This document shows, in pieces, positions 1-14,378 of a stretch of DNA of 14,378 nt. Where the stretch lies: the IMG/VR virus record IMGVR_UViG_2721755663_000005, one strand, 5' to 3'. Below the pieces are notes generated by a model. It was not told the DNA's origin, searched no databases, and saw only the letters and a list, made by a program, of their open reading frames with translations. The position numbers and the translations under genes were made by a program. The stretch is from a virus. Taxonomy: Duplodnaviria; Heunggongvirae; Uroviricota; Caudoviricetes. How positions within the stretch are numbered: the first letter of the stretch is position 1; each line of letters opens with the position of its first letter.

Positions 1-235
1 AACACCCTCAGACATTATCAATTTTAGATATAGTATGTCCTTGGCGTAGATTTCTCAAGAGTGTAAACAAGGGGGGAGACTTATGCTGGAAACTTGGGAA
101 AAAGCGACTGTTATTTTGTTCAGTAAACACCATGTAAACACACTGCCAACTGGCAACCATTCAATACTCACACCATCGAACGGACTTCAGCTGACCGCGA
201 CCTGTTTCTTCATTCTCGGATAGCGGCATTCATCT

Positions 236-823
236 TTATGCTGGTTTTGCTGGCCAAGTGATGTCAGGTGCTTTCGATGTATCGACCTCCTGAAGTGCTT
301 TAATGTACCAAATCCACGCAATCAGACTCGTCTTATCTTCGTCGCTAATGATTCCCAATTGCAGTTCAGTTGTCCAGAAACTGATCTTTTCCTTAGCTTT
401 TACCAATAGAATAGCTTTTTGCTTATCAGCCACTTCAACATCAGCTGCATACTTAGCATTTGGGTCTGATACCCACTTTTTCCCATCCCATTTCTGGAAC
501 GGATCAGAAGGAGCAATATTGGTATAGCCATTATTAATAGGACCAATATAGTCGATAGTATGAGGCATACCGTCAGTAGTTGAATAAACTGTCTTACCTC
601 GATGGTCTTCTTTCAAGACCCATCCTCCATTTTCGAATACAGCAACCTTTCCTGTTAGTTCATTACCCGGATCAATATCGGTAGAATTACCCGGCATACT
701 GACGCCAATATTAATATATTCGTCTGACCATCCTATATATTCAAAAGTTACTATATCGTAGTAATAGCAGCGGATTTCACCCGGTTCCGTTGCCAGTCCA
801 TTTTCATCAAAAACAGGTTTCAT
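236..823 (-). CDS. Tail fiber assembly protein (lambda Tfa-family chaperone)
   Basis: 195-aa ORF with Tfa-family hallmark motifs (EDHRGKTVY, NSTDIxP, QKWxGxxWV, VDTSxAPDIxWPA). Its start overlaps the stop of the upstream fibre gene by 1 nt. The region is visibly more AT-rich than the rest of the tail module. Confidence 0.8.
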   Translation of the reverse strand: MKPVFDENGLATEPGEIRCYYYDIVTFEYIGWSDEYINIGVSMPGNSTDIDPGNELTGKVAVFENGGWVLKEDHRGKTVYSTTDGMPHTIDYIGPINNGYTNIAPSDPFQKWDGKKWVSDPNAKYAADVEVADKQKAILLVKAKEKISFWTTELQLGIISDEDKTSLIAWIWYIKALQEVDTSKAPDITWPAKPA

Positions 824-1581
824 TATTTAGCCCTTACTAAAAAGTTAAATGTGATATTGCGGGGACGTGTTTCGTTGCCTCCAGGATTTTGGAATGCAGG
901 TAAAGCTCCCCCTATCGGCTGACTGATTCCGTTGGTATATAAAGGAGCTGCATTCGATATTGTACCAAACACTACATTGCTACCATTTCCGCTTGTCCCT
1001 AAAAATTTATGCTCATGCATTTTGAAGTCATCTGCTTGTGCAGAAAGTAAGGTTCGCCCTCTATCCACCCCGCGCCCATCATCCCAGATACGAATAAAAT
1101 CACCCCGTGCGTCAGGTAATGCTAGCGCCGGAAACACTTTCGCCAGCACAGGGTAATCAGTGGCAGAGAATTTCGCGCCGTTGAACTTCAAAAACACCAT
1201 ACTGGACCAACTGTCGATTACAGTATTTGGCATTGCGGCGGACGGCCAGAAGAACGGAACACCAATAGCTGGAGCACCTTCTCCCAAACCAAGATTTTCG
1301 AGAGCCGTTTTCACCGTGCCATCCGATTTGATATCACCAAACGGATTCTTGCGGCTTAACAGCAGCGCGCGAAGTGCGGTAAGCAACTGATCGTGCCGCC
1401 CCTTCTCCAGGCTGGCACCGGATGCCTCCACCACGCTGCAAAGCTCCTCCTGCAACATGTCAAAGTAGTCATCATCCAGATCGGTGGCAGGCGCACCGGT
1501 CTGGGGGTTACCACGGGTAAAACCGTTCTTACCCGCGCCGAACTTATCCTTCTGCGCGGTTTTCGTGTCTATACGATGCAT
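823..1581 (-). CDS. Short tail fibre protein, C-terminal part resembling a phage tail-collar domain
   Basis: 252-aa ORF immediately downstream of the gp48-like gene and upstream of the Tfa chaperone. N-terminus ([29 protein letters not shown]...[14 protein letters not shown]) is of a type I recall from enterobacterial prophage fibre proteins; the C-terminal Gly/Asn-rich region is collar-like. Assignment from position and recalled similarity only. Confidence 0.65.
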
Positions 1582-1584
1582 GGA

Positions 1585-2169
1585 TTACTCCGGATATTTA
1601 AAAATTACGTAGGTATGCGACGGGCAGAGTTTGTTAAGCACACACTCGACAACGGTGTCGCCCCAGATACGCAGTGCGGAATCACAGGGATCGCCACATG
1701 TCATCCAGGTGGTGTTGGTGGCGGCTGGCATGTTGATCTGCCAGTAATACCGCCATTCCGGCGCATTCACCGCGTCAGTACAGGCCGATGAGCAGGTGAA
1801 CGTGCTTTTGTCGTATCGCGTGATGGTAGCATCTGGTCTGCCCAGGGCAGCAAGCTGTGCAAGATAAAAATCCTCGTTGATGCCACCCGACAGGTTAACC
1901 TTCGCATCCAGCCGTTGCTGGCGCTGGCGAAGGGTCTGTGTCCCTGTAGGAATACATTCATCCGGCAGGCCGCACAGACGCTCCCAGCGGTTTATCAGTT
2001 CGGTGGTGGTGCGCGGATCCAGCTCCCGCATCAGGGCATCCGCACGCTGATGAACACGGGTTAATGACGGTGCCGTACCGGCAATCGCCGGATCGCTGGC
2101 TGACCACGCCGGACCGGGCGGCAGCAGTGCCGACAACAGACGGATGTAATCATCGTTTGTCACGTCCAT
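1585..2169 (-). CDS. Mu gp48-like tail protein (YmfQ/DUF2313-like)
   Basis: 194-aa ORF in the conserved position between the J-like baseplate gene and the fibre gene; 10-nt overlap with the upstream gene. Family assignment from synteny and recalled similarity. Confidence 0.6.
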
Positions 2170-3218
2170 GAAATCGTCCCCAGAACCGCCAGTTCATTTT
2201 TTGCAATGGAGATATTGTCCGCCGGTGCAAGCAATTGATGGCTGTATTCCCCGTTCGCACCGGAAATCGCCTCACTGATACGCGATACCTTCAGTTCTCC
2301 CTGCGGATAACCATCACGCAGCAGGAACGAACGCAACTCGGCGGTGATGGCAGCCCGTATTTCCGGTGTGTCCGGCGTCACGCGGATATGAAAATCCACT
2401 TTATGCGCCACCGGCCTGAATACATACAAATCAGAGCCTGCCACCGGGGCCAGTGGCTCGATATGTTGTCTTGCCGCCGTTTCCGTTGACTCTTCCGGAA
2501 TGGGATTAATCAGGTCACTGCTGGCAATCATCACACCGACAGTCCCCGTTCCCATCCAGTGTCGGTATGTCCATGCGCGGGTAATGCCGGGCACTTCTTT
2601 AGCCCAGACGACATAGTCCCCGTCAGCCCCGCCCTGAGGCGTCCAGTAATACCGCTCAATGACGCGGGCGCGCCACGTTTCCAGCTCTTCAGTATCAAAT
2701 CCGCCTGTCAGGGTGTCAGCCACACCGGAAGACGGCAGACCATTCACCGGCGTGACCAGGATTAATGCCGTACCGTCGTCAGCGTTACCGACCGCGCCTG
2801 TAGTTGAGCAAGTGATCGGCACACGCAGGACGCCACCAGTGCTGGTTGCATCGGCAGTTGCCGTGTACTGAACCAGGTCATCGCGCTGAATAACACTCCC
2901 GGCGGTCACCTTCAGGCCATCGCTGACACCTTCCCAGCGCATATACCCGCTGGCAGCCGTGGCCCCCTTGCGCGGACACCGTTTCATCGCAGCATGTCGC
3001 GCCAGCCAGGACTCATCGCACAGATCAGGCAGCATGTTCATTGCCAGATAATCGATGTAACCGTAAACCGTATGCAGCGCCGCCGCATACACCTTTGCCC
3101 GCACGTCTTCATCCATGCGCCGGAGCGTGTCGCTGACGTCCAGCCTGGCGAATAAATCGTTACGGAGCATACTGATATTTTCTGCCAGCGTCGGGCGCTG
3201 AAATTCACTGTCCGCCAT
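2160..3218 (-). CDS. Baseplate J-like protein (Mu gp47 / P2 gpJ family)
   Basis: 352-aa ORF at the size and position expected for the J-like baseplate wedge protein in a Mu-type tail operon; overlaps the gp46-like gene by 14 nt. Confidence 0.7.
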
Positions 3219-3633
3219 GCGTTATCGCACTCCACAGATCATCAAAAGAAATCATTACCGGTCCGTCACGACGCCAGAGAGTGATACTGTTACCCAGTTC
3301 ATTAATCCCGGTGCGGCGGATATCCAGATCAATACGGGACACCACGCCATCATCAATCATCCATTGCAGGCATTCGCGGATATACCCCCTTACCGTCTGC
3401 ACCAGCTGATTGGTCAGTTTGCTGCGCTGAAGCAGCCACAGTCGGGAGCCGTAACGGTCATTCTGTACCGCAGGCCAGGTATCCCCCCACCATCCCATCG
3501 GGACGTCGGCGTTGTCATCAGGCTCCGCCCGCCGCCAGGTAAACAGGGAAATCACCACGGCGCGGGTCAGCGGATCCAGCGGTGCGCTGGCGCAGGTGCG
3601 TTTACCGTTCACCGTCAGCCACAGTTCCATCAT
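3205..3633 (-). CDS. Mu gp46-like baseplate protein (phage GP46 family)
   Basis: 142-aa ORF between the gp45/V-like and J-like genes; 4-nt start/stop overlap with the upstream gene. Confidence 0.65.
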   Translation of the reverse strand: MMELWLTVNGKRTCASAPLDPLTRAVVISLFTWRRAEPDDNADVPMGWWGDTWPAVQNDRYGSRLWLLQRSKLTNQLVQTVRGYIRECLQWMIDDGVVSRIDLDIRRTGINELGNSITLWRRDGPVMISFDDLWSAITHGGQ

Positions 3634-4178
3634 GCCTCCATCGCTTTATCAGGTTTGTCGGTGTTACTGCCCTGACCGTTCTCTCTGTGACGATGCCCGT
3701 TATAGGCAAGCCGCATCGCTGACATGGTGGTGCCGCTGGAGTCGCACAGGTCTTTCACCTGTCCTGTCACTTCCAGGTCCATTTCAAAACGTGCTTTAGG
3801 TGAATTGCGAAACGTGATCGTTTTACCTGCACCGTCCACCACGATCCCCTCCCGGGTCAGCGTCACAGACTGCCCCTGATCGTCATAGACAGCCACCTCA
3901 CCCGTCTGCAGCCCTTTCAGGCGGTAACGCCGATCCGACACCGTAACAACCACCGCATGAGAACGGTCGCCATCCGGAAACAACACCACCGCTTCCGCAC
4001 CGCTGTTTGCCCTTGCGGTAAAACCGTAAGGTTCAAGATGTTCAACCCCGGCTTTGGGTTCACCGGCAATCAGGGACACATCCACGGTCTGACATTTCGT
4101 TGCGGCACTGATGCTTTTCACCACGGCCCGCCCAATCAGCCCGAGGAGTTGTCGCTGTATGGTTTCAATCGCCCTCAT
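3630..4178 (-). CDS. Baseplate assembly protein V / central spike (Mu gp45-like)
   Basis: 182-aa ORF directly downstream of the P-like gene, sharing 1 nt with its stop. Size and order fit the gpV/gp45 spike family. Confidence 0.65.
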   Translation of the reverse strand: MRAIETIQRQLLGLIGRAVVKSISAATKCQTVDVSLIAGEPKAGVEHLEPYGFTARANSGAEAVVLFPDGDRSHAVVVTVSDRRYRLKGLQTGEVAVYDDQGQSVTLTREGIVVDGAGKTITFRNSPKARFEMDLEVTGQVKDLCDSSGTTMSAMRLAYNGHRHRENGQGSNTDKPDKAMEA

Positions 4179-4829
4179 CAGAACGGGTCCTCCTGTACTC
4201 TGGCTTTTTTCTTTTTCCGCGCGCCGGGATCTTCGGGTTCAGGCAGATAAGCATCAGGCGGGCCGACACGGATTTCCGTCAGGGTGCCGTTCTGGTCCTG
4301 AGTAAACGTGACTTCCGAAACAAGCAGTTCGGTATTGTCGAAACCACAGACCGGATCAAAGACAATCACCCGCTGGTTGGGCTGCCACAGCGTACCGTTA
4401 CCCTGTCGCCAGCCCTGCACCACATAGGTGGTTTCATCCGTCCGCGCCGCCCGTTGTCGGGCTTCAAAGTCAGCACGCGCAATACAGCCTGCCCCCGTGG
4501 CCTGCCCTGTCTGCCTGATATACATCGGACGGTAACGGGCAATAAATGCGTCCTCTGTGCGGGCCCGCAGCGCGGTGGTGGTGGCCTCACCGAAATCATC
4601 GTCGTTTCCGGCACGCTGCCCCGCCACCTGGTAAACTGAAAACCGCTCCCGGATACTCTTCTCCGTATCACAGGAAAGGATGTTTTCCCCAAGTACCAGC
4701 GCGGTATGTGCCCGCGTTGAGCCAATACCGCCAATCACCAGCCTGCCGTGCGGGTCGTCGTAAGCCAGCGCCTGCTGCTGACCGAGTATTTTGTTGATTA
4801 CCTCAATCACCGTTTCACCGTGATCAGGC
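4178..4829 (-). pseudogene. Mu P (gp44)-like baseplate protein, C-terminal segment, separated from its N-terminal segment by an IS66-family insertion
   Basis: The ORF-track ORF 4178..4912 begins with 27 codons encoded by the IS terminus. From the duplicated GATCAGGC (4822..4829) downward the frame continues ...PDHGETVIEV..., in register with the N-terminal segment at 7285..7720. Confidence 0.75.
4822..4829. repeat. Target-site duplication GATCAGGC (left copy) of the IS66-family element
   Basis: Identical 8-mer at 7285..7292, directly abutting the other IS terminus. Confidence 0.85.
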
Positions 4830-4910
4830 GTAAGCGTCGTCTCAGCACCGTCTGGCAGATCCTGAAATTCCTGAGAGAATAGTGGACACCAAATATGGTG
4901 GACGCAATCC

Positions 4911-5315
4911 ATGAAATCATTAACCGCAGTGCGTAAAAAAAGCCCTAATTATCCCGTTGAGTTCAAAATCAAAATGGTTGAACTCTCGCATCGACCAGAG
5001 ATCTCCGTAGCGCAACTCGCTCGTGAGCATGGGATCAACGATAATTTGCTGTTCAAGTGGCGCCAGTACTGGCGCGAAGGAAAACTACGTCCTCCTTCAA
5101 CAACAGAAAACAACGTGCCTGAGCTGCTCCCGATAACACTTGATGCCGAAGATGTTGTCCCTACAACCTCCCCCCGGTCACAACCTGTAGCTGCTGCGAC
5201 ACCTGAATCACTCAATATCAGCTGTGAAGTGACGTTCCGGCACGGATCACTCCGTCTGAATGGTGCCATCAGCGAAAATATCCTGAACCTGCTGATACGG
5301 GAGCTCAAACGTTGA
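4911..5315 (+). CDS. tnpA: IS66-family accessory protein TnpA (orfA)
   Basis: 134-aa ORF starting 81 bp inside the IS left end; first of the three-gene layout. Confidence 0.75.
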   Translation: MKSLTAVRKKSPNYPVEFKIKMVELSHRPEISVAQLAREHGINDNLLFKWRQYWREGKLRPPSTTENNVPELLPITLDAEDVVPTTSPRSQPVAAATPESLNISCEVTFRHGSLRLNGAISENILNLLIRELKR

Positions 5316-5659
5316 TCCCATTACCATCAGGGACAAAGATCTGGCTGGTCGCTGGCATCACCGATATGAGAAACGGCTTCAACGGCCTGGCGGCAAAGGT
5401 GCAGACGACGCTGAAAGACGATCCGATGTCAGGTCACGTTTTTATCTTCCGTGGGCGTAATGGCAGTCAGGTAAAGCTCCTCTGGTCTACCGGCGATGGA
5501 CTGTGTCTGCTGACCAAACGGCTGGAGCGCGGCCGCTTCGCCTGGCCGTCAGCCCGGGATGGCAAAGTGTTCCTCACACCGGCACAGCTGGCGATGCTGC
5601 TGGAAGGTATCGACTGGCGGCAGCCTAAAAGACTGCTTACGTCCCTGACTATGTTGTAA
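5312..5659 (+). CDS. tnpB: IS66-family TnpB (orfB)
   Basis: 115-aa ORF with the conserved N-terminus MIPLPSGTKIWLVAGITDMR...; ATGA overlap with tnpA. Confidence 0.85.
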   Translation: MIPLPSGTKIWLVAGITDMRNGFNGLAAKVQTTLKDDPMSGHVFIFRGRNGSQVKLLWSTGDGLCLLTKRLERGRFAWPSARDGKVFLTPAQLAMLLEGIDWRQPKRLLTSLTML

Positions 5660-5707
5660 GCCTCTTTATCCTGGTCGACGCTGAATGAGCCTGGTAATAT
5701 ACCCGGT

Positions 5708-7247
5708 ATGAGCAGCTCACTTCCTGACGATATCAATGCACTGAAACGTCTCCTTGCCGAACAGGAGGCGCTGAACCGTGCCCTGCAGGAAAAGCTGAAC
5801 GAGCGTGAACGCGAAATAGACCATCTGCAGGCACAGCTGGATAAGCTGCGCCGGATGAACTTCGGCAGCCGCTCGGAAAAAGTCTCCCGTCGTATCGCAC
5901 AGATGGAAGCTGACCTGAAGGCACTTCAGAAAGAAAGTGATACCCTTACCGGTCGGGTTGACGACCCGGCCGTGCAGCGCCCGCTGCGTCAAACCCGCAC
6001 CCGCAAACCGTTCCCCGAATCACTCCCCCGCGATGAAAAACGGCTGCTGCCGGCAGCGTCATGCTGCCCGGAATGTGGAGGCTCGCTGAGCTATCTGGGT
6101 GAGGATGCCGCCGAACAGCTGGAGCTGATGCGCAGCGCCTTCCGGGTTATCCGGACTGTACGTGAAAAGCATGCCTGTACTCAGTGCGATGCCATCGTGC
6201 AGGCCCCCGCGCCTTCACGGCCCATCGAGCGGGGTATCGCAGGACCGGGGCTGCTGGCCCGCGTGCTGATCTCAAAGTATGCAGAGCACACCCCGCTGTA
6301 CCGCCAGTCTGAAATGTACGGCCGCCAGGGCGTGGAGCTGAGTCGTTCACTGCTGTCGGGCTGGGTGGATGCATGCTGCCGGCTACTGTCACCGCTGGAA
6401 GAAGCGCTTCAGGACTATGTGCTGACTGACGGTAAGCTCCATGCTGATGACACGCCTGTCCCGGTGCTGTTGCCAGGCAATAAGAAAACGAAGACCGGGC
6501 GGTTATGGACCTACGTTCGTGACGACCGTAACGCCGGGTCAACGCTGGCGCCGGCGGTGTGGTTCGCTTACAGCCCGGACAGAAAAGGCATCCATCCGCA
6601 GACCCATCTTGCGGGGTTCAGTGGTGTACTGCAGGCGGATGCATACGCCGGGTTCAACGAGCTGTACCGGGATGGCCGGATAACGGAAGCCGCCTGTTGG
6701 GCTCACCGCCCGCCGTAAAATCCACGATGTGCACGTTCGCACCCCGTCAGCCCTGACGGAGGAAGCGCTGAAACGGATCGGCGAACTGTACGCCATCGAG
6801 GCAGAGATAAGGGGAATGACGGCGGAGCAGCGCCTTGCCGAACGTCAGTTGAAAACGAAACCGCTGCTGAAATCCCTGGAAAGCTGGCTGCGTGAAAAGA
6901 TGAAAACCCTGTCGCGACACTCAGAACTGGCGAAAGCGTTCGCATACGCCCTGAACCAGTGGCCGGCGCTGACGTACTATGCAGATGATGGCTGGGCTGA
7001 GGCGGACAATAACATCGCTGAAAATGCGTTGCGGATGGTCAGTCTGGGCCGCAAAAACTACCTGTTCTTCGGTTCGGATCATGGAGGAGAGCGGGGAGCG
7101 CTGCTGTACAGCCTGATCGGGACGTGCAAACTGAACGGAGTGGAGCCAGAAAGCTACCTCCGCTATGTCCTTGACGTCATAGCCGACTGGCCGATAAACC
7201 GGGTCGGCGAACTGCTCCCCTGGCGCGTAGCACTGCCGACTGAATAA
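5708..7247 (+). pseudogene. tnpC: IS66-family transposase TnpC, disrupted by a frameshift near 6700..6715
   Basis: Transposase-like translation runs 5708..6718 (ending ...[10 protein letters not shown]) and resumes in another frame through 6729..7247 (...[13 protein letters not shown]...). The break lies in a C/G-rich run, gctcaccgcccgccgtaaaatccacgat, which is a different frame from the continuation that follows. Confidence 0.75.
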
Positions 7248-7284
7248 CACATCCCCGTCAATACGGTTCTTGCTGCACGCTTAC

Positions 7285-7292
7285 GATCAGGC
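7285..7292. repeat. Target-site duplication GATCAGGC (right copy) of the IS66-family element
   Basis: Identical to 4822..4829. Confidence 0.85.
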
Positions 7293-7720
7293 TGAACATC
7301 AGGAATAACACCCGACGGCGCACCGCTGTTCACCACCTCAATGCCGAAAGGCGCAGCAAGCGCCTGCGCAATCTGCACCAGCGAGCGTCCGTTAAACTGT
7401 GTCGGTTCGGCTGCACAGTCAATCAGGTCAGCCGTCAGACTACGTCCGGCAATACCGGTGCTGACCGAACGGGCATCGTAACGAACGGGCGTCGCCTCCA
7501 CCCAGCCGGTGATCACCAGCTCATCACCAATCAGCACTTCCACTTTTGAACCGTTTTTAATGCGCGGCTGAAGCGTGGTGATACCCTCATCACCCGGCCA
7601 CTGGCGGGTGATCTCCACACTGAAATCCCGCGCCAGCCGTTCAATACCGGCACCGATGCGCACCGATGTCCAGCCATTCCACTCCCGGCCATTTACCCGT
7701 AGCGTGACATTGTCGTTCAT
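7285..7720 (-). pseudogene. Mu P (gp44)-like baseplate protein, N-terminal segment (about 145 codons), interrupted by the IS66-family element
   Basis: ORF-track ORF 7163..7720 starts MNDNVTLRVNGREWNGWTSVRIG...; its start overlaps the stop of gene N by 4 nt. Codons beyond ...DVQPD are read from the IS terminus. Confidence 0.75.
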
Positions 7721-9045
7721 TGCACTGGCACCTTCAGAGGGATCACCGGCACAAAGCCGGGATGTGTAATGGCATTACGCCGGATAATGTCCGCGTCACG
7801 CGCCGCGTTATCAAACCAGGTCGCCGCCAGCACCAGCGCGGGTAAAACCTCATCCGGCGTGCGCTGAATGATCCGTGCAGACTGTTCAAGGCGCGTGTTG
7901 ATATCCGCATTCAGATCTGCTTTCACCCGGCGCAGCGCCAGAAACAGCGCATCACTGGTTGTACGGGACAACTCCTTATCAATTGCCGTATTCAGTGTGT
8001 CGCGAATGTCAGTCAGTTCTTCCCACGTCGGCAGGTCAACCGTGTTTTTCACCGCCGGTGCATTGTTCAGTGCCGGATGCGTGACGGAAGGCCAGCCAGT
8101 GCTCTGCGCGGGTGTTGTTGCCTGCCCCACTGCGGCATTCTGCATCACCGCAGAAATTGTTGGCGCAGGCAATCGGGTGACGGCATACGCCGCTTCGCTG
8201 ATTGCGGTCGTACGAAGGGTGCTGGCAACCACGTTACGCTGCTGCGTCGCCGTGGCGGTGGTTTTACTGTCCGTTTTCCAGACGCCGCGCGGTTGCAGAT
8301 CGCTGCCGAGGCTGACACCGGAAAGCGTTTTGATCATGGTGACCAGGTCGCTGGCGTTACCATAAAGGCGTTTCCCGGTACGCCACATTTTCTGCACCTG
8401 CTCAACGAAATTTTTGCCTGACGATGGCGGCGGCAGAAGTACCGAGATATCCCCCTGCAACAGCCTGGCGGCATCCGATACGGCAGAATCCACCACTTTC
8501 ATCGCATCAGAAACATACCCAAGCATTGTGCTGGCATTACCGACGACGTCGTTCTGCACAAAATCTGCCACGCCATCGATACTGAAACCACTGAAGCTGT
8601 CACTGATGCAGTCATCCAGTGCAGAACAGGATGACATCAGCGTCTGCGCCGTCGCCGCACCTGAAGTGGGGTAAGAGAGTTCTCCCGCTTCGACAAACTT
8701 CAGGTCAAAGCGGACAATACGCCCTTCACTCTTCGATGTGCTGACCCGAACTTCCCCGTCAACACAGACTTTCAGCTCACCGTAAGTCGGATGGACAAGC
8801 GTGCCGGGACCGGGTTTATTCAGCGCGTCAATCAGGCGATCGCGCTGGTCAAAGCAGTCATCTCCCACCACATAAGCTGTGATGGACGGGCGGAAAGTGA
8901 TTTTCCCCAGGTCTTCGGTATAGGGTTTGTCGCGGTTCGGGTATTCGTGCGTTTCCACACGACGACCGGTTCCCGCACTTTCTTCTTCAACCTTAAACGG
9001 CACACCGCGAAATGACGCGTCCTGAAGTCTGTCTTTCCACGTCAT
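7717..9045 (-). CDS. DNA circulation protein N (Mu gp43-like)
   Basis: N-terminal motif ...MTWKDRLQDASFRGVPFKVEEE... is as I recall for the Mu N family. I place the start at the ATG complementary to 9043..9045 because GGAG lies 7 nt upstream; the ORF track extends the frame to 9087, where no ribosome-binding site is visible. Confidence 0.7.
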   Translation of the reverse strand: MTWKDRLQDASFRGVPFKVEEESAGTGRRVETHEYPNRDKPYTEDLGKITFRPSITAYVVGDDCFDQRDRLIDALNKPGPGTLVHPTYGELKVCVDGEVRVSTSKSEGRIVRFDLKFVEAGELSYPTSGAATAQTLMSSCSALDDCISDSFSGFSIDGVADFVQNDVVGNASTMLGYVSDAMKVVDSAVSDAARLLQGDISVLLPPPSSGKNFVEQVQKMWRTGKRLYGNASDLVTMIKTLSGVSLGSDLQPRGVWKTDSKTTATATQQRNVVASTLRTTAISEAAYAVTRLPAPTISAVMQNAAVGQATTPAQSTGWPSVTHPALNNAPAVKNTVDLPTWEELTDIRDTLNTAIDKELSRTTSDALFLALRRVKADLNADINTRLEQSARIIQRTPDEVLPALVLAATWFDNAARDADIIRRNAITHPGFVPVIPLKVPVQ

Positions 9046-9060
9046 ATAAACTCCGTACAT

Positions 9061-9083
9061 AAAAAATCCCACCGGAGTGGGAC
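9061..9083 (-). terminator. Candidate intrinsic terminator or attenuator between the tape measure gene and gene N
   Basis: On the minus strand: 6-bp stem UCCCAC/GUGGGA with 4-nt loop, followed directly by a U6 run, located between the tape-measure stop (9106) and the GGAG ribosome-binding site of N. Confidence 0.35.
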
Positions 9084-9105
9084 TCATTAACAGATTAATT
9101 TTTCA

Positions 9106-10941
9106 TTACCTGCCAAAGCGCGTATAGCCAACATCATGGCTGACATCAAAACCGCTGGATCGCGTTTCCATAACCCGCATACCCGGAGGCGAATTCACAA
9201 AAGAGACCTTGATCTCACCATCAACTTTTGGCGCAGAAGCTTTGTTAATCATGAAGGGATTCGGGCCTGTGGCACCGGAGGCGTTGTTTGACTGAGCCGG
9301 ATCTACCGCCTGATAAGGTGTGTATCCCCGTGCCGGTATTCCCGTCCCATAAGCATCATAAGCACCCGCGCCCCACTGCGCAGAGTTAATGGCATCGACC
9401 GTGTCACCGGAACTGTCGGTAAACCACTCAATAATTGGCTTCAGTTTGTCCCACATATCCTGAAACCACTTAACAACCGGTCCCCAGTTATTGATTACCA
9501 TCCCCAGCGGCGACCAGGCAAAAACCATCTTCAGAAGTTCCCAGCCAGCCTCAAAATAAGGACCAATGGTTTCCCAGAGCTTCTTGAAATAAGGTCCGAC
9601 AACATCCCAGTTAGTGATAATTAATCCCGCAGCCAGGGCTATCGCCGTCGCAATCATTCCAATCGGCGTCATCGACATGATCCTGCTGACAATACTGATG
9701 GCACCGCCAACGCCCATCAATCCCAGTTTCAGAATCGCAAGACCGGCAGCAAGCCCGACGACGCCGCGAATAACCCGGGGATTTTCATCCGCAAACTTCG
9801 TGAATTTTTCCCCTAACTCCCCCAGCCATTGCGTGATATTTTTGGCGTCACCAGAAAATGCGCCGCCAATAGCCGCAAGGCCGTTAGTTGCGGTCCCCGT
9901 CATTGCCTCCCACAGGTTGGACAGCGTACCAAGCTGGGCCTGAACACGTTTATTCAGGCTGGCCTGTTTATTCATCTTCTGCTGGATCTGATCGTAGCCA
10001 TCCTTTCCTTTATCGATTAGTGCATTGACCACCTGAAGGGTTTCGGCATCATCACCAAATATTGCCTTAAGTACACCTGTTCGCTTAACGTCGGTCAGTT
10101 TTCGCAGCTTTGCCAGTTGCCTGAACATGTTATCAAGACCGCCAAAACTTCCTTTGCCGTCAGTAAAATCGAGCTGTACCCCGAGTTTCTGGCGGGCCAT
10201 GATTTTATTGACGTCCCTGATTTTCTTAACGCTTAATCCGGACTGGATAACTTTTCGCAGGGCGTTACCTGCCGACTCCCCGTTCATCCCCATCTGATCC
10301 ATCATGACGCTGATGGGGGCAAGGCTCTGTGCAGCCTGAAGACCGTCCTTGTTCACCATCTTCAGAACAGAGCTGGTTTTAGTGAAGAAGGACAACATGT
10401 TGGTATCGTCAACACCCAGATAAAACGCCTTCTGGATAGTGTCGAACAGCCCCATCATGTCTTCTGACGCCGTTCCGGTAGCATCCTGCATCTTTGCAGC
10501 AAACTCAGCAGCCGCTTCCGGTGTTTTTTTCAGTTGTACCGCAAGATAAGCTGTCGCTTTACCCACACCACCCAGAATGTTTTCTGCCGGGATCCCCTGA
10601 CGCACCAGCATCTGCATCATGTTCTGGAAATCAGCCGTTGTACCGGGTAGCTGGTTACCCAGGCCAATAGCCAGTTTATTGATGTCCTGAAAGCTCTTTC
10701 CAACCTCGCCGTTCGCATCCATCATGGCGACTTTCAGCCCGGTGGCGGCGTTTTCCTGATCGGCATAAGATTTCAGGGAAAGCGTCAGACCCGCTGCCAG
10801 TCCGCCACCAAGCGCCAGCCCACCCTGTGACGCTTCTTCCGCCTGGCGTTTAAATCCCCGGATTTTCTTTTGCATTTTCGACAGCGCGGGAGAAAGCCTG
10901 TCGACACCGGTGATCAACGCCTTAAGCTCAAATTCAGCCAT
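9106..10941 (-). CDS. Tail tape measure protein
   Basis: 611-aa ORF with Ala/Gly-rich helical N-terminal region and hydrophobic C-terminal segments typical of tape measure proteins. Positioned immediately upstream of N as in Mu (gp42); AGGAGA ribosome-binding site upstream of the ATG. Confidence 0.75.
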   Translation of the reverse strand: MAEFELKALITGVDRLSPALSKMQKKIRGFKRQAEEASQGGLALGGGLAAGLTLSLKSYADQENAATGLKVAMMDANGEVGKSFQDINKLAIGLGNQLPGTTADFQNMMQMLVRQGIPAENILGGVGKATAYLAVQLKKTPEAAAEFAAKMQDATGTASEDMMGLFDTIQKAFYLGVDDTNMLSFFTKTSSVLKMVNKDGLQAAQSLAPISVMMDQMGMNGESAGNALRKVIQSGLSVKKIRDVNKIMARQKLGVQLDFTDGKGSFGGLDNMFRQLAKLRKLTDVKRTGVLKAIFGDDAETLQVVNALIDKGKDGYDQIQQKMNKQASLNKRVQAQLGTLSNLWEAMTGTATNGLAAIGGAFSGDAKNITQWLGELGEKFTKFADENPRVIRGVVGLAAGLAILKLGLMGVGGAISIVSRIMSMTPIGMIATAIALAAGLIITNWDVVGPYFKKLWETIGPYFEAGWELLKMVFAWSPLGMVINNWGPVVKWFQDMWDKLKPIIEWFTDSSGDTVDAINSAQWGAGAYDAYGTGIPARGYTPYQAVDPAQSNNASGATGPNPFMINKASAPKVDGEIKVSFVNSPPGMRVMETRSSGFDVSHDVGYTRFGR

Positions 10942-11116
10942 GTGTGCGTTTCTCCTGCTCTATCCTGTTTGCCTGACTGACCAGTAAGGGAATTTCACTG
11001 ATCGGCATATTCAGCAATTCGAAAGGATTAATGCGCCAGTAGCTGGCGCAGTCAAAGAAGCGATCAGTGAGGTATTCAGCCGTCAGGCCTGGAGGAAAAA
11101 ACCAGCCACAAGCCAC
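10934..11116 (-). pseudogene. 5'-truncated phage gene fragment, possibly tail assembly chaperone (Mu gp41 position), cut by the IS911-like element
   Basis: Open frame runs to the very edge of the IS at 11116 with no credible native start; the ORF track opens it on GTG. 8-nt overlap with the tape-measure start. Confidence 0.4.
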
Positions 11117-11188
11117 TGAAGTGGTTTACTGAATTTGGCCACCTGAACAGAGGTGATATGCTCACCTCAGAACAACACAGGTGCCATA

Positions 11189-12338
<1,150 letters not shown>

Positions 12339-12368
12339 CTCGGTGGCCAGTTTTTGTTGACCACTTCA

Positions 12369-12920
12369 GTTGTTGAATTTGCACTTGCAACAGGCTTAAG
12401 ACGCTCGAACATCATCAACCTTGAATGGCAACAAATAGACATGCAGCGCCGGGTGGCATGGATAAACCCGGAAGAGAGTAAATCAAACCGCGCAATTGGC
12501 GTTGCGCTGAATGATACTGCATGTCGCGTATTGAAAAAACAAATCGGGAATCATCACCGTTGGGTATTTGTGTACAAGGAAAGCTGTACCAAACCAGACG
12601 GAACGAAAGCGCCAACAGTCAGGAAGATGCGGTATGACGCAAACACAGCCTGGAAAGCGGCGCTGAGACGGGCTGGTATTGATGATTTCAGATTTCACGA
12701 CTTGAGACACACCTGGGCAAGTTGGCTGGTTCAAGCCGGAGTCCCGTTGTCAGTGTTACAGGAAATGGGAGGCTGGGAGTCTATCGAAATGGTTCGTCGA
12801 TATGCTCACCTTGCACCTAATCACCTTACCGAACACGCACGGCAAATAGACTCGATCCTAAACCCATCGGTCCCAAATTTGTCCCAGTCAAAAAATAAGG
12901 AAGGCACTAATGATGTGTAA
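12369..12920 (+). pseudogene. Tyrosine recombinase (phage integrase), C-terminal catalytic-domain fragment, 5'-truncated by the IS911-like element
   Basis: Catalytic signature present: [15 protein letters not shown] (box I Arg), HDLRHTWAS (His-x-x-Arg), MVRRYAHL (Tyr). Only about 183 integrase-derived codons remain; the first five codons of the ORF-track ORF come from the IS terminus. The gene ends 14 bp from the tRNA 3' end and reads toward it. Confidence 0.8.
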
Positions 12921-12934
12921 CTTATTGATTTAAA

Positions 12935-13010
12935 TGGTGCCGATAATAGGAGTCGAACCTACGACCTTCGCATTACGAATGCGCTGCTCTACCAACTGAG
13001 CTATATCGGC
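12935..13010 (-). tRNA. thrW: tRNA-Thr (anticodon CGU)
   Basis: Reverse complement reads GCCGATATAGCTCAGTTGGTAGAGCAGCGCATTCGTAATGCGAAGGTCGTAGGTTCGACTCCTATTATCGGCACCA: 76 nt, cloverleaf-compatible, encoded CCA, anticodon loop TTCGTAA. Located downstream of proA as thrW is in E. coli. Confidence 0.9.
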
Positions 13011-13062
13011 CCTGAAAGGACATGTTCACGAACGTGAATCACGGTGGGCAAGGTTAAAACTA

Positions 13063-13119
13063 ACCGGGCGATGCGTCAATGGCCTTGTGAATCAAATGGC
13101 TACTTTTGCATCACCCGGT
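13063..13119 (-). repeat. Inverted repeat in the proA-thrW intergenic region
   Basis: 12-nt arms ACCGGGCGATGC (13063..13074) and GCATCACCCGGT (13108..13119), complementary with one G.U position, separated by 33 nt. On the minus-strand transcript the 3' arm is followed by UAGUUUUAA. Could be the proBA terminator or thrW leader structure. Confidence 0.3.
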
Positions 13120-13124
13120 TTTAT

Positions 13125-14378
13125 TTACGCACGAATGGTGTAATCACCAATGCCGATCCACTTGTAAGTGGTCAGTGCTTCCAGCCCCATTGGGCCACGC
13201 GCGTGGAGTTTTTGTGTGCTTACCGCCACTTCCGCACCCAGACCAAACTGGCCGCCGTCGGTAAAACGCGTAGAGGCGTTAACGTAAACAGCGGACGAAT
13301 CCACTTCGTTAACAAAACGCTGGGCGTTGCGCATATCGCGGGTCAGGATCGCATCGGAGTGTTGTGTGCCGTGTTCACGAATATGGGCGATGGCATCGTC
13401 AAGATCGCTGACGATTTTGACGTTCAAATCTAATGACAGAAACTCATCGTCATACTCTTCGGCTTTAACAGCAACCACCTTCGCAGGGCCTGCCTGCAAC
13501 TGCGCCAGTGCAGCTGCATCTGCGTGTAATGTCACGCCGCTTTCCGCCATTTGTTTGCTTAATGCGGGCAGGAAGCTATCGGCGATGTTTTTATTCACCA
13601 GCAACGTTTCAACCGTATTACATGTGCTCGGACGCTGAGTTTTCGCGTTGACGATCACTTTTAATGCTTCAGCGATCTCTACACTTTCATCAACGTAAAT
13701 ATGGCATACGCCTATACCACCTGTGATCACCGGGATTGTCGACTGTTCACGGCACAGTTTATGCAAACCAGCGCCACCACGCGGGATCAGCATGTCGATG
13801 TATTTATCCATACGCAGCATTTCACTGACCAGCGCACGGTCAGGATTATCAATCGCCTGCACGGCACCCGCCGGTAAGCCGCAGGATTTCAGGGCGTCCT
13901 GAATCACCGCCACCGTTGCAGCGTTAGTGCGACACGTTTCTTTGCCACCGCGCAGGATCACCGCATTACCGGTTTTCAGGCACAGCGAAGCGACATCAAC
14001 CGTCACGTTCGGGCGCGCTTCATAAATCACGCCAATAACCCCCAGCGGTACGCGACGACGCTCAAGACGCAGGCCGCTGTCCAGTACGCCGCCATCGATT
14101 ACCTGCCCCACCGGATCGGCGAGGTTGCACACCTGACGTACATCGTCGGCAATGCCTTTCAGCCGTGCGGGCGTCAGTGCCAGACGGTCAAGCATCGCTT
14201 CGCTAAGGCCATTGGCTCGCGCGTCAGCAACATCCTGGGCGTTAGCGTTGAGGATGATTTCGCTTTGTGCTTCCAGTTCATCGGCGATTTTTTCCAGCAC
14301 GCGATTTTTTTCGCGGCTGGAGAGTTGCGCTAATTTATACGAGGCTTGCTTCGCGGCAATGCCCATTTGTTCCAGCAT
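13125..14378 (-). CDS. proA: Gamma-glutamyl phosphate reductase
   Basis: Full-length 417-aa [33 protein letters not shown]...GDYTIRA, which I recognise as E. coli-type ProA. The start codon is the last three bases of the window. Confidence 0.95.

Follow-up and report, generated by a model that had tools for sequence, protein, structure and literature searches.

Members of the IS66 family of insertion sequences have imperfect terminal inverted repeats that reportedly, as described by Han et al. in 2001, start with GTAAGCG. The target duplication made by this family is reported to be 8 bp long (PMC6778807). For one member, ISEc22, a literature search turned up incidental mentions only; outside the locus described here it carries tnpA, tnpB, and tnpC in that order between GTAAGCGT termini, is accompanied by an 8-bp target duplication, and has a canonical length of 2454 bp. 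Phages of the SfI/SfV type, for their part, integrate at thrW beside proA, and they are lambdoid phages with a Mu-like tail module, not transposable phages (PMC3636060). In SfV, the genes of this module follow the order N-P-gp45-gp46-gp47-gp48, and orf16 of SfV ('similar to Mu tail protein P') is 1080 bp long and encodes 359 aa.

The window analysed here, by which we mean the whole stretch of viral DNA at its full length of 14,378 nucleotides, resembles SfV in both the order of these genes and the thrW/proA integration site (Table 1). Unlike in SfV, the P-like gene is interrupted, ~25.5 kb of phage sequence is missing, and the tail-fibre end (1..1277) has no SfV match. SfV carries gtrV/gtrB/gtrA, whereas the Escherichia coli D9 chromosome has, beyond the tail-fibre genes, a NeuD-family acetyltransferase and a MaoC-family dehydratase. 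Our main reading, to which we assign a probability of about 0.94, is that one copy of ISEc22 transposed into an SfV/e14-like prophage residing at thrW by proA, within the gene for the baseplate hub. The presence of ISEc22 in the hub gene is already known, in that RefSeq has all three IS genes, the frameshift, and the two halves of the pseudogene annotated in the E. coli strains D9 and D4; a paper on the D9/D4 locus was not found. The anatomy fits known IS66-family behaviour and ordinary prophage decay, with no departure from either. The locus offers a clean case of an E. coli prophage decaying through insertion sequences, with little import beyond correct annotation.

Table 1 Coordinates of prophage, insertion sequence, and attachment-site features in the window
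Feature	Position	Strand	Basis
gp48/YmfQ-like gene	1585..2169	-	RefSeq/SfV annotation; region 97% identical to SfV
gp47/J-like gene	2160..3218	-	RefSeq/SfV annotation; region 97% identical to SfV
gp46-like gene	3205..3633	-	RefSeq/SfV annotation; region 97% identical to SfV
gp45/V-like gene	3630..4178	-	RefSeq/SfV annotation; region 97% identical to SfV
Hub gene, 3' part (residues 144-359 + stop)	4178..4829	-	RefSeq pseudogene 'missing N-terminus'
Left target-site duplication copy, GATCAGGC	4822..4829	n/a	Equals SfV 13423..13430, common to both flanks
ISEc22 (IS66 family), 2455 bp = canonical 2454 bp + one extra C at 6706	4830..7284	+	Sequence identity to annotated copies
Left imperfect terminal inverted repeat (GTAAGCGT...)	4830..4859	+	Compared with right-end reverse complement
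tnpA, 134 aa, IS66 accessory protein	4911..5315	+	Pfam HTH_Tnp_1, E = 9e-12; RefSeq WP_000839179.1
tnpB, 115 aa, IS66 Orf2-like accessory protein	5312..5659	+	Pfam TnpB_IS66, E = 1.6e-38; RefSeq WP_000612626.1
tnpC, DDE transposase, split ORFs 5708..6718 and 6729..7247	5708..7247	+	LZ_Tnp_IS66, zf-IS66, DDE_Tnp_IS66, DDE_Tnp_IS66_C
Right imperfect terminal inverted repeat (...ACGCTTAC)	7255..7284	-	Compared with left end
Right target-site duplication copy, GATCAGGC	7285..7292	n/a	Abuts right IS terminus
Hub gene, 5' part, Mu P/gp44-like (residues 1-145)	7285..7720	-	RefSeq pseudogene 'phage baseplate assembly protein, missing C-terminus'
DNA circularization (Mu N-like) gene and tape measure gene (9106..10941)	7717..10941	-	98% identical to SfV 13430..9599
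ISEc52 (IS3 family), 1252 bp, at deletion breakpoint	11117..12368	+	RefSeq annotation, SfV mapping
SfV-type integrase, C-terminal fragment	12369..12920	+	D9 annotation, SfV match
tRNA-Thr(CGU), thrW	12935..13010	-	Prophage attachment end beside proA

ISEc22 and the interrupted baseplate hub gene

The element in the hub gene had initially been assigned to the IS66 family, an assignment borne out by its genes, its ends, and its close relatives. Its tnpA, tnpB, and tnpC are consecutive, each with IS66-type Pfam families, and GTAAGCGT is found at each end, within inverted repeats whose outermost 8 nt match perfectly and in which 18 of 30 nt match between the ends. The window copy is 100% identical to that of D9 and 99.96% identical to canonical copies annotated as ISEc22 in RefSeq, the name being based on the best-matching copies, labelled 'IS66-like element ISEc22 family transposase' by NCBI PGAP. 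Using megablast, ISEc22 is found in 4008 of 5426 complete E. coli genomes, with matching copies located on chromosomes as well as plasmids, and it is multi-copy in the D9 and D4 assemblies (5 and 6 places, respectively).

Exact copies of GATCAGGC adjoin the two IS termini, which read GTAAGCGT... from 4830 and ...ACGCTTAC up to 7284, and on both sides the repeat reaches outward for 8 bp and no further. Within the window GATCAGGC is seen five times against 0.5 expected, and the only pair abutting the IS termini is the one in Table 1; the probability that two 8-mers at a given pair of positions agree by chance is 4^-8 (~1.5e-5). When the flanks are mapped onto SfV, window 1278..4829 corresponds to SfV 16974..13423 and window 7285..11116 to SfV 13430..9599, so that the two overlap by exactly 8 bp, with no loss and no rearrangement beside the insertion. 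Among six further full-length ISEc22 copies, taken from unrelated genomes, five likewise have a perfect 8-bp duplication of their own outside the same termini, while the sixth (L007) has no duplication and is flanked by fragments of other insertion sequences. Since the five copies and the reported IS66 length agree on 8 bp, the boundaries of ISEc22 and its duplication at this locus are secure. The insertion is a simple one, without adjacent rearrangement.

In a BLAST search with the junction as query, some matches extended 7 nt past the IS end, and a target-site preference was considered. A convincing target-site consensus is not discernible among the six targets compared (GATCAGGC, GATTTATT, GCTTATTG, GCTGATAC, CATCATAC, and AAATATTC), a small sample.

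The reading frame of the hub gene is in register over both copies of the duplication, the N-terminal fragment ending in ...IPDVQPD before the IS and the C-terminal fragment resuming from PDHGETVIEV. As it now stands, the 5' ORF runs on into ISEc22 to position 7163 (minus strand). In-silico removal of 4830..7292 yields exactly 359 codons from the ATG at 7720 to the stop at 4178 (minus strand), with no internal stop. The restored protein contains the Pfam domains GpP-like_1st, Gp44-like_2nd, and GpP_4th, all above the Pfam cut-offs, and its residues 1-348 align with residues 1-348 of Mu gp44 (PDB 1WRU; E = 1.7e-50), the alignment being gapless at the insertion junction (residues 143-146). It is also colinear with the 43-kDa tail protein of MuSo2 (3CDD; E = 4e-52). 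These results bear out what the initial annotation had observed at this site, namely a perfect 8-bp duplication outside both termini, a frame in register, and a reconstructed ORF of roughly 359 codons, together with a Mu P-like identity of the target and a simple transposition; the refuting condition that it named, stops in the reconstructed ORF or a loss of colinearity with P-family proteins across the junction, does not hold. Its remark that such a length is close to that of Mu gp44 was mistaken. Mu gp44 has the same three GpP/Gp44 domains and is a clear homologue, but it measures 379 aa and its divergence lies far past the allele level; the exact 359-aa counterpart is SfV orf16, whose DNA is 98.1% identical to the restored gene.

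Uninterrupted alleles, for which the initial annotation had suggested a search of related genomes, are present in other E. coli at ~99% identity. In E. coli 2009C-3133, the product of one such allele, annotated as 'phage baseplate assembly protein', is identical to the restored protein at 357 of 359 residues, and this allele sits in a complete prophage in which head, sheath, tube, lysis, and regulatory genes are present. At the DNA level, the restored gene is 97.9-98.6% identical to its counterparts in twelve phage records, among them SfV, SfI, SfII, SfIV, and three E. coli phages. Its context, according to the D9 RefSeq and SfV annotations, is the Mu-type cluster N, P, gp45, gp46, gp47, gp48. 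On the strength of this homology, the product of the interrupted gene is predicted to be the trimeric baseplate hub.

Distribution of the junction and the tnpC frameshift

The empty site, constructed in silico as 249 bp with one GATCAGGC, is matched with 100% identity in many E. coli and covered to at least 80% in 1085 genomes. The occupied ISEc22/hub-gene junction, by comparison, occurs in 2 of the 5426 complete E. coli genomes, those of D9 (NZ_CP010152), which is identical to the window over the region compared, and D4; both strains are dog isolates from the same sequencing project. The restriction of the junction to D9 and D4 and the single base by which the IS departs from canonical copies together point to a recent, lineage-specific simple transposition. 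The relatively recent origin proposed in the initial annotation is thereby supported, on the basis of distribution and near-zero divergence and not of a dated phylogeny.

The one base in question is the extra C at 6706, the single difference from the canonical sequence when the window copy is aligned with seven other full-length copies; it is present neither in D4 nor in the six other ISEc22 copies. Owing to the extra C, tnpC is read as two ORFs, of 336 and 172 aa, between which the DDE_Tnp_IS66 match is divided; deletion of this base restores a 512-aa TnpC identical to that annotated in D4. RefSeq labels the tnpC of D9 'frameshifted', a feature absent from the initial description. The window copy does not encode an intact DDE transposase as required for autonomy, which bears on its autonomy and not on its family membership. 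Across 18.4 kb, D9 and D4 differ by 1-2-base indels only, all within two multi-copy IS elements, with 0 differences in unique sequence. Because these indels are confined to IS copies, they form the pattern expected of consensus errors in repeats. The extra C may therefore be either a genuine inactivating mutation or an assembly consensus error, and the departure from the canonical length is possibly a matter of sequencing. Descent from a mobile frameshifted ISEc22 variant common to other strains was also considered and rejected, as the 2455-bp 'frameshifted' copies of those strains have their extra C elsewhere, in a C-run at the window-equivalent position 7216, ~10 codons ahead of the tnpC stop.

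A prophage remnant with a second insertion sequence

The prophage that received ISEc22 is a degraded SfV/e14-like remnant at its native thrW/proA site, where tRNA-Thr, the adjacent integrase fragment, and proA are all found. Phage sequence ends at 11116, a short way upstream of the tape measure gene and within the tail assembly gene, and is followed by ISEc52, the integrase fragment, tRNA-Thr, and proA. The terminal repeats of ISEc52 are good; its flanks, CAC on the left and GTT on the right, show no target duplication. Identity to SfV amounts to 97.1-98.5% in three blocks (~8 kb in total), and only SfV 9599..16974 and 20592..21206 are represented. The remainder, from 21207 round to 9598, is absent. 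In these ~25.5 kb lay the N-terminus of the integrase, xis, the early/regulatory, lysis, and terminase genes, the genes for head, sheath, and tube, and a portion of the tail assembly gene; without them, the window holds a remnant and not a complete phage genome. A single SfV-like prophage has been hit by two different IS elements, of which ISEc22 inserted simply and ISEc52 borders a deletion of ~25 kb.

This composition limits what can be ascribed to ISEc22. The initial annotation held the insertion alone to be enough to inactivate the baseplate. There is no doubt that the gene is disrupted, but sheath, tube, head, lysis, and regulation are also missing with the ~25.5 kb, and because of this loss an uninterrupted hub gene would still give neither a baseplate nor a tail. 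The insertion is not the sole lesion and possibly not the first, and its present-day phenotypic effect is probably nil. The perfect target duplication dates and types the insertion; it says nothing on whether this was the inactivating event.

Order of events and competing explanations

ISEc22 entered codons 143-146 of the hub gene, a homologue of SfV orf16, duplicated the 8-bp target GATCAGGC, and left the gene of 359 codons as a pseudogene in two halves. ISEc52, without target duplication, stands in place of the ~25.5 kb that reach from the N-terminal portion of the integrase gene into the tail assembly gene. Were ISEc22 the earlier of the two, it would have inactivated a functional prophage, and the ISEc52-associated deletion would have come later, after selection on the phage genes was lost. 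We regard this order as possible and hold it only tentatively, leaning somewhat against it. Neither half of the hub gene has decayed further, and the ORF restored from them is intact, with 99% identity to functional alleles, which is consistent with such an order; however, the other tail genes are equally undecayed (97-98% to SfV), and this makes the absence of decay uninformative as to which lesion came first. The confinement of the ISEc52/tape-measure and ISEc22/hub junctions alike to D9 and D4 would permit either order; no genome among the 5426 complete E. coli carries the insertion minus the deletion or the reverse.

Whether the ISEc22 insertion arose by simple transposition at all can be judged from the same sequences. 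The over-representation of GATCAGGC in the window and the unduplicated L007 copy would be in keeping with a coincidental 8-bp repeat around an IS that arrived via homologous recombination or a larger rearrangement. The exact match to the empty site in effect rules such an origin out. SfV and intact E. coli alleles have the two flanks side by side, and the overlap of these flanks has precisely the length reported for IS66 and seen at five of the six other copies, a length of repeat for which the chance estimate given above is very small. Misplacement of a multi-copy IS during assembly of D9 and D4 is scarcely more credible. It would draw on the several ISEc22 copies in both genomes, on the indel noise inside IS copies, and on the shared sequencing project, which makes a common artefact formally possible; on the other hand, both junctions are identical in every base between two separate assemblies, and a misplaced repeat would not yield a perfect 8-bp target duplication. 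No observation speaks against the insertion itself, and simple transposition of ISEc22 into the hub gene is the preferred reading.

The inserted element also supplies a potential start codon to the severed gene. An ATG at 4912, within ISEc22, opens an in-frame hybrid ORF of 244 aa (4912..4178, minus strand), which consists of 28 IS-encoded residues followed by hub residues 144-359, i.e., the 216 C-terminal residues. With the regulatory region for the late genes deleted, expression of this ORF in D9 would not be expected. We consider it very improbable that the extra C is real and that a non-autonomous ISEc22 drives this 244-aa hybrid protein as a hub fragment retained and used by the host; if this were true, the retained fragment might, for example, disturb the assembly of related SfV/e14-type phages.

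ISEc52 and the prophage deletion

The second insertion sequence in the window, ISEc52, is bounded on one side by a truncated tail assembly gene and on the other by a truncated integrase gene, and marks the site at which ~25.5 kb of the SfV-like prophage has been deleted. No target duplication is found at its ends (left flank CAC, right flank GTT), and the deletion presumably arose through an IS-mediated event. ISEc52 has the usual programmed A6G slippery site near 11441; beyond this, its orfB gene also appears to carry a frameshift at about 12074.

Coordinates of features in the window
Feature	Position	Strand	Remarks
ISEc52 (IS3 family, 1252 bp)	11117..12368		flanks 11114..11116 and 12369..12371
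244-aa ORF	4178..4912	-	ATG within left end of ISEc22
GATCAGGC	3023, 4822, 7111 (-), 7285, 12103

Possible frameshifts in the insertion sequences

Comparison of the loci of the two E. coli dog isolates D9 and D4 over 18.4 kb reveals 1-2-base indels as the sole differences, all of them within ISEc22, the IS66-family element in the hub gene, or ISEc52 (window 6706, 11351-11359, 11409, 12074, 12190 and 12367), with zero differences in unique sequence. This pattern suggests consensus errors in repeats, and the frameshift calls in the window's copies of both elements may therefore be unreliable.

A different 2455-bp variant of ISEc22, with an extra C in a C-run at window-equivalent 7216, was found at two loci, as an insertion in cbrC and in a plasmid traG; this count covers the two copies checked, and several other 2455-bp matches, some adjoining a recombinase gene, lie outside it. 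The variant is annotated as frameshifted by RefSeq. The extra C falls ~10 codons upstream of the tnpC stop and alters only the extreme C-terminus of TnpC; the variant may still be active.

Hybrid reading frame and octamer sites

The ATG of the 244-aa ORF overlaps the opposite-strand tnpA start codon, and the frame is shared with the hub protein's last 216 residues; this ORF is probably fortuitous. The octamer GATCAGGC occurs five times in the window, compared with 0.5 expected from shuffles. Counting the target duplication as one event leaves four independent sites, one within ISEc22 and one within ISEc52.

Possible cargo beyond the tail-fibre end

The region at issue here comprises window 1..1277 and 1..3171 of the D9 locus (L001). 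The tail-fibre end of the remnant has no match to SfV. Past it, D9 encodes a NeuD/PglB/VioB-family acetyltransferase and a MaoC-family dehydratase, at the place where SfV carries the O-antigen glucosylation genes gtrV/gtrB/gtrA; the D9 genes may represent a different surface-modification cargo.
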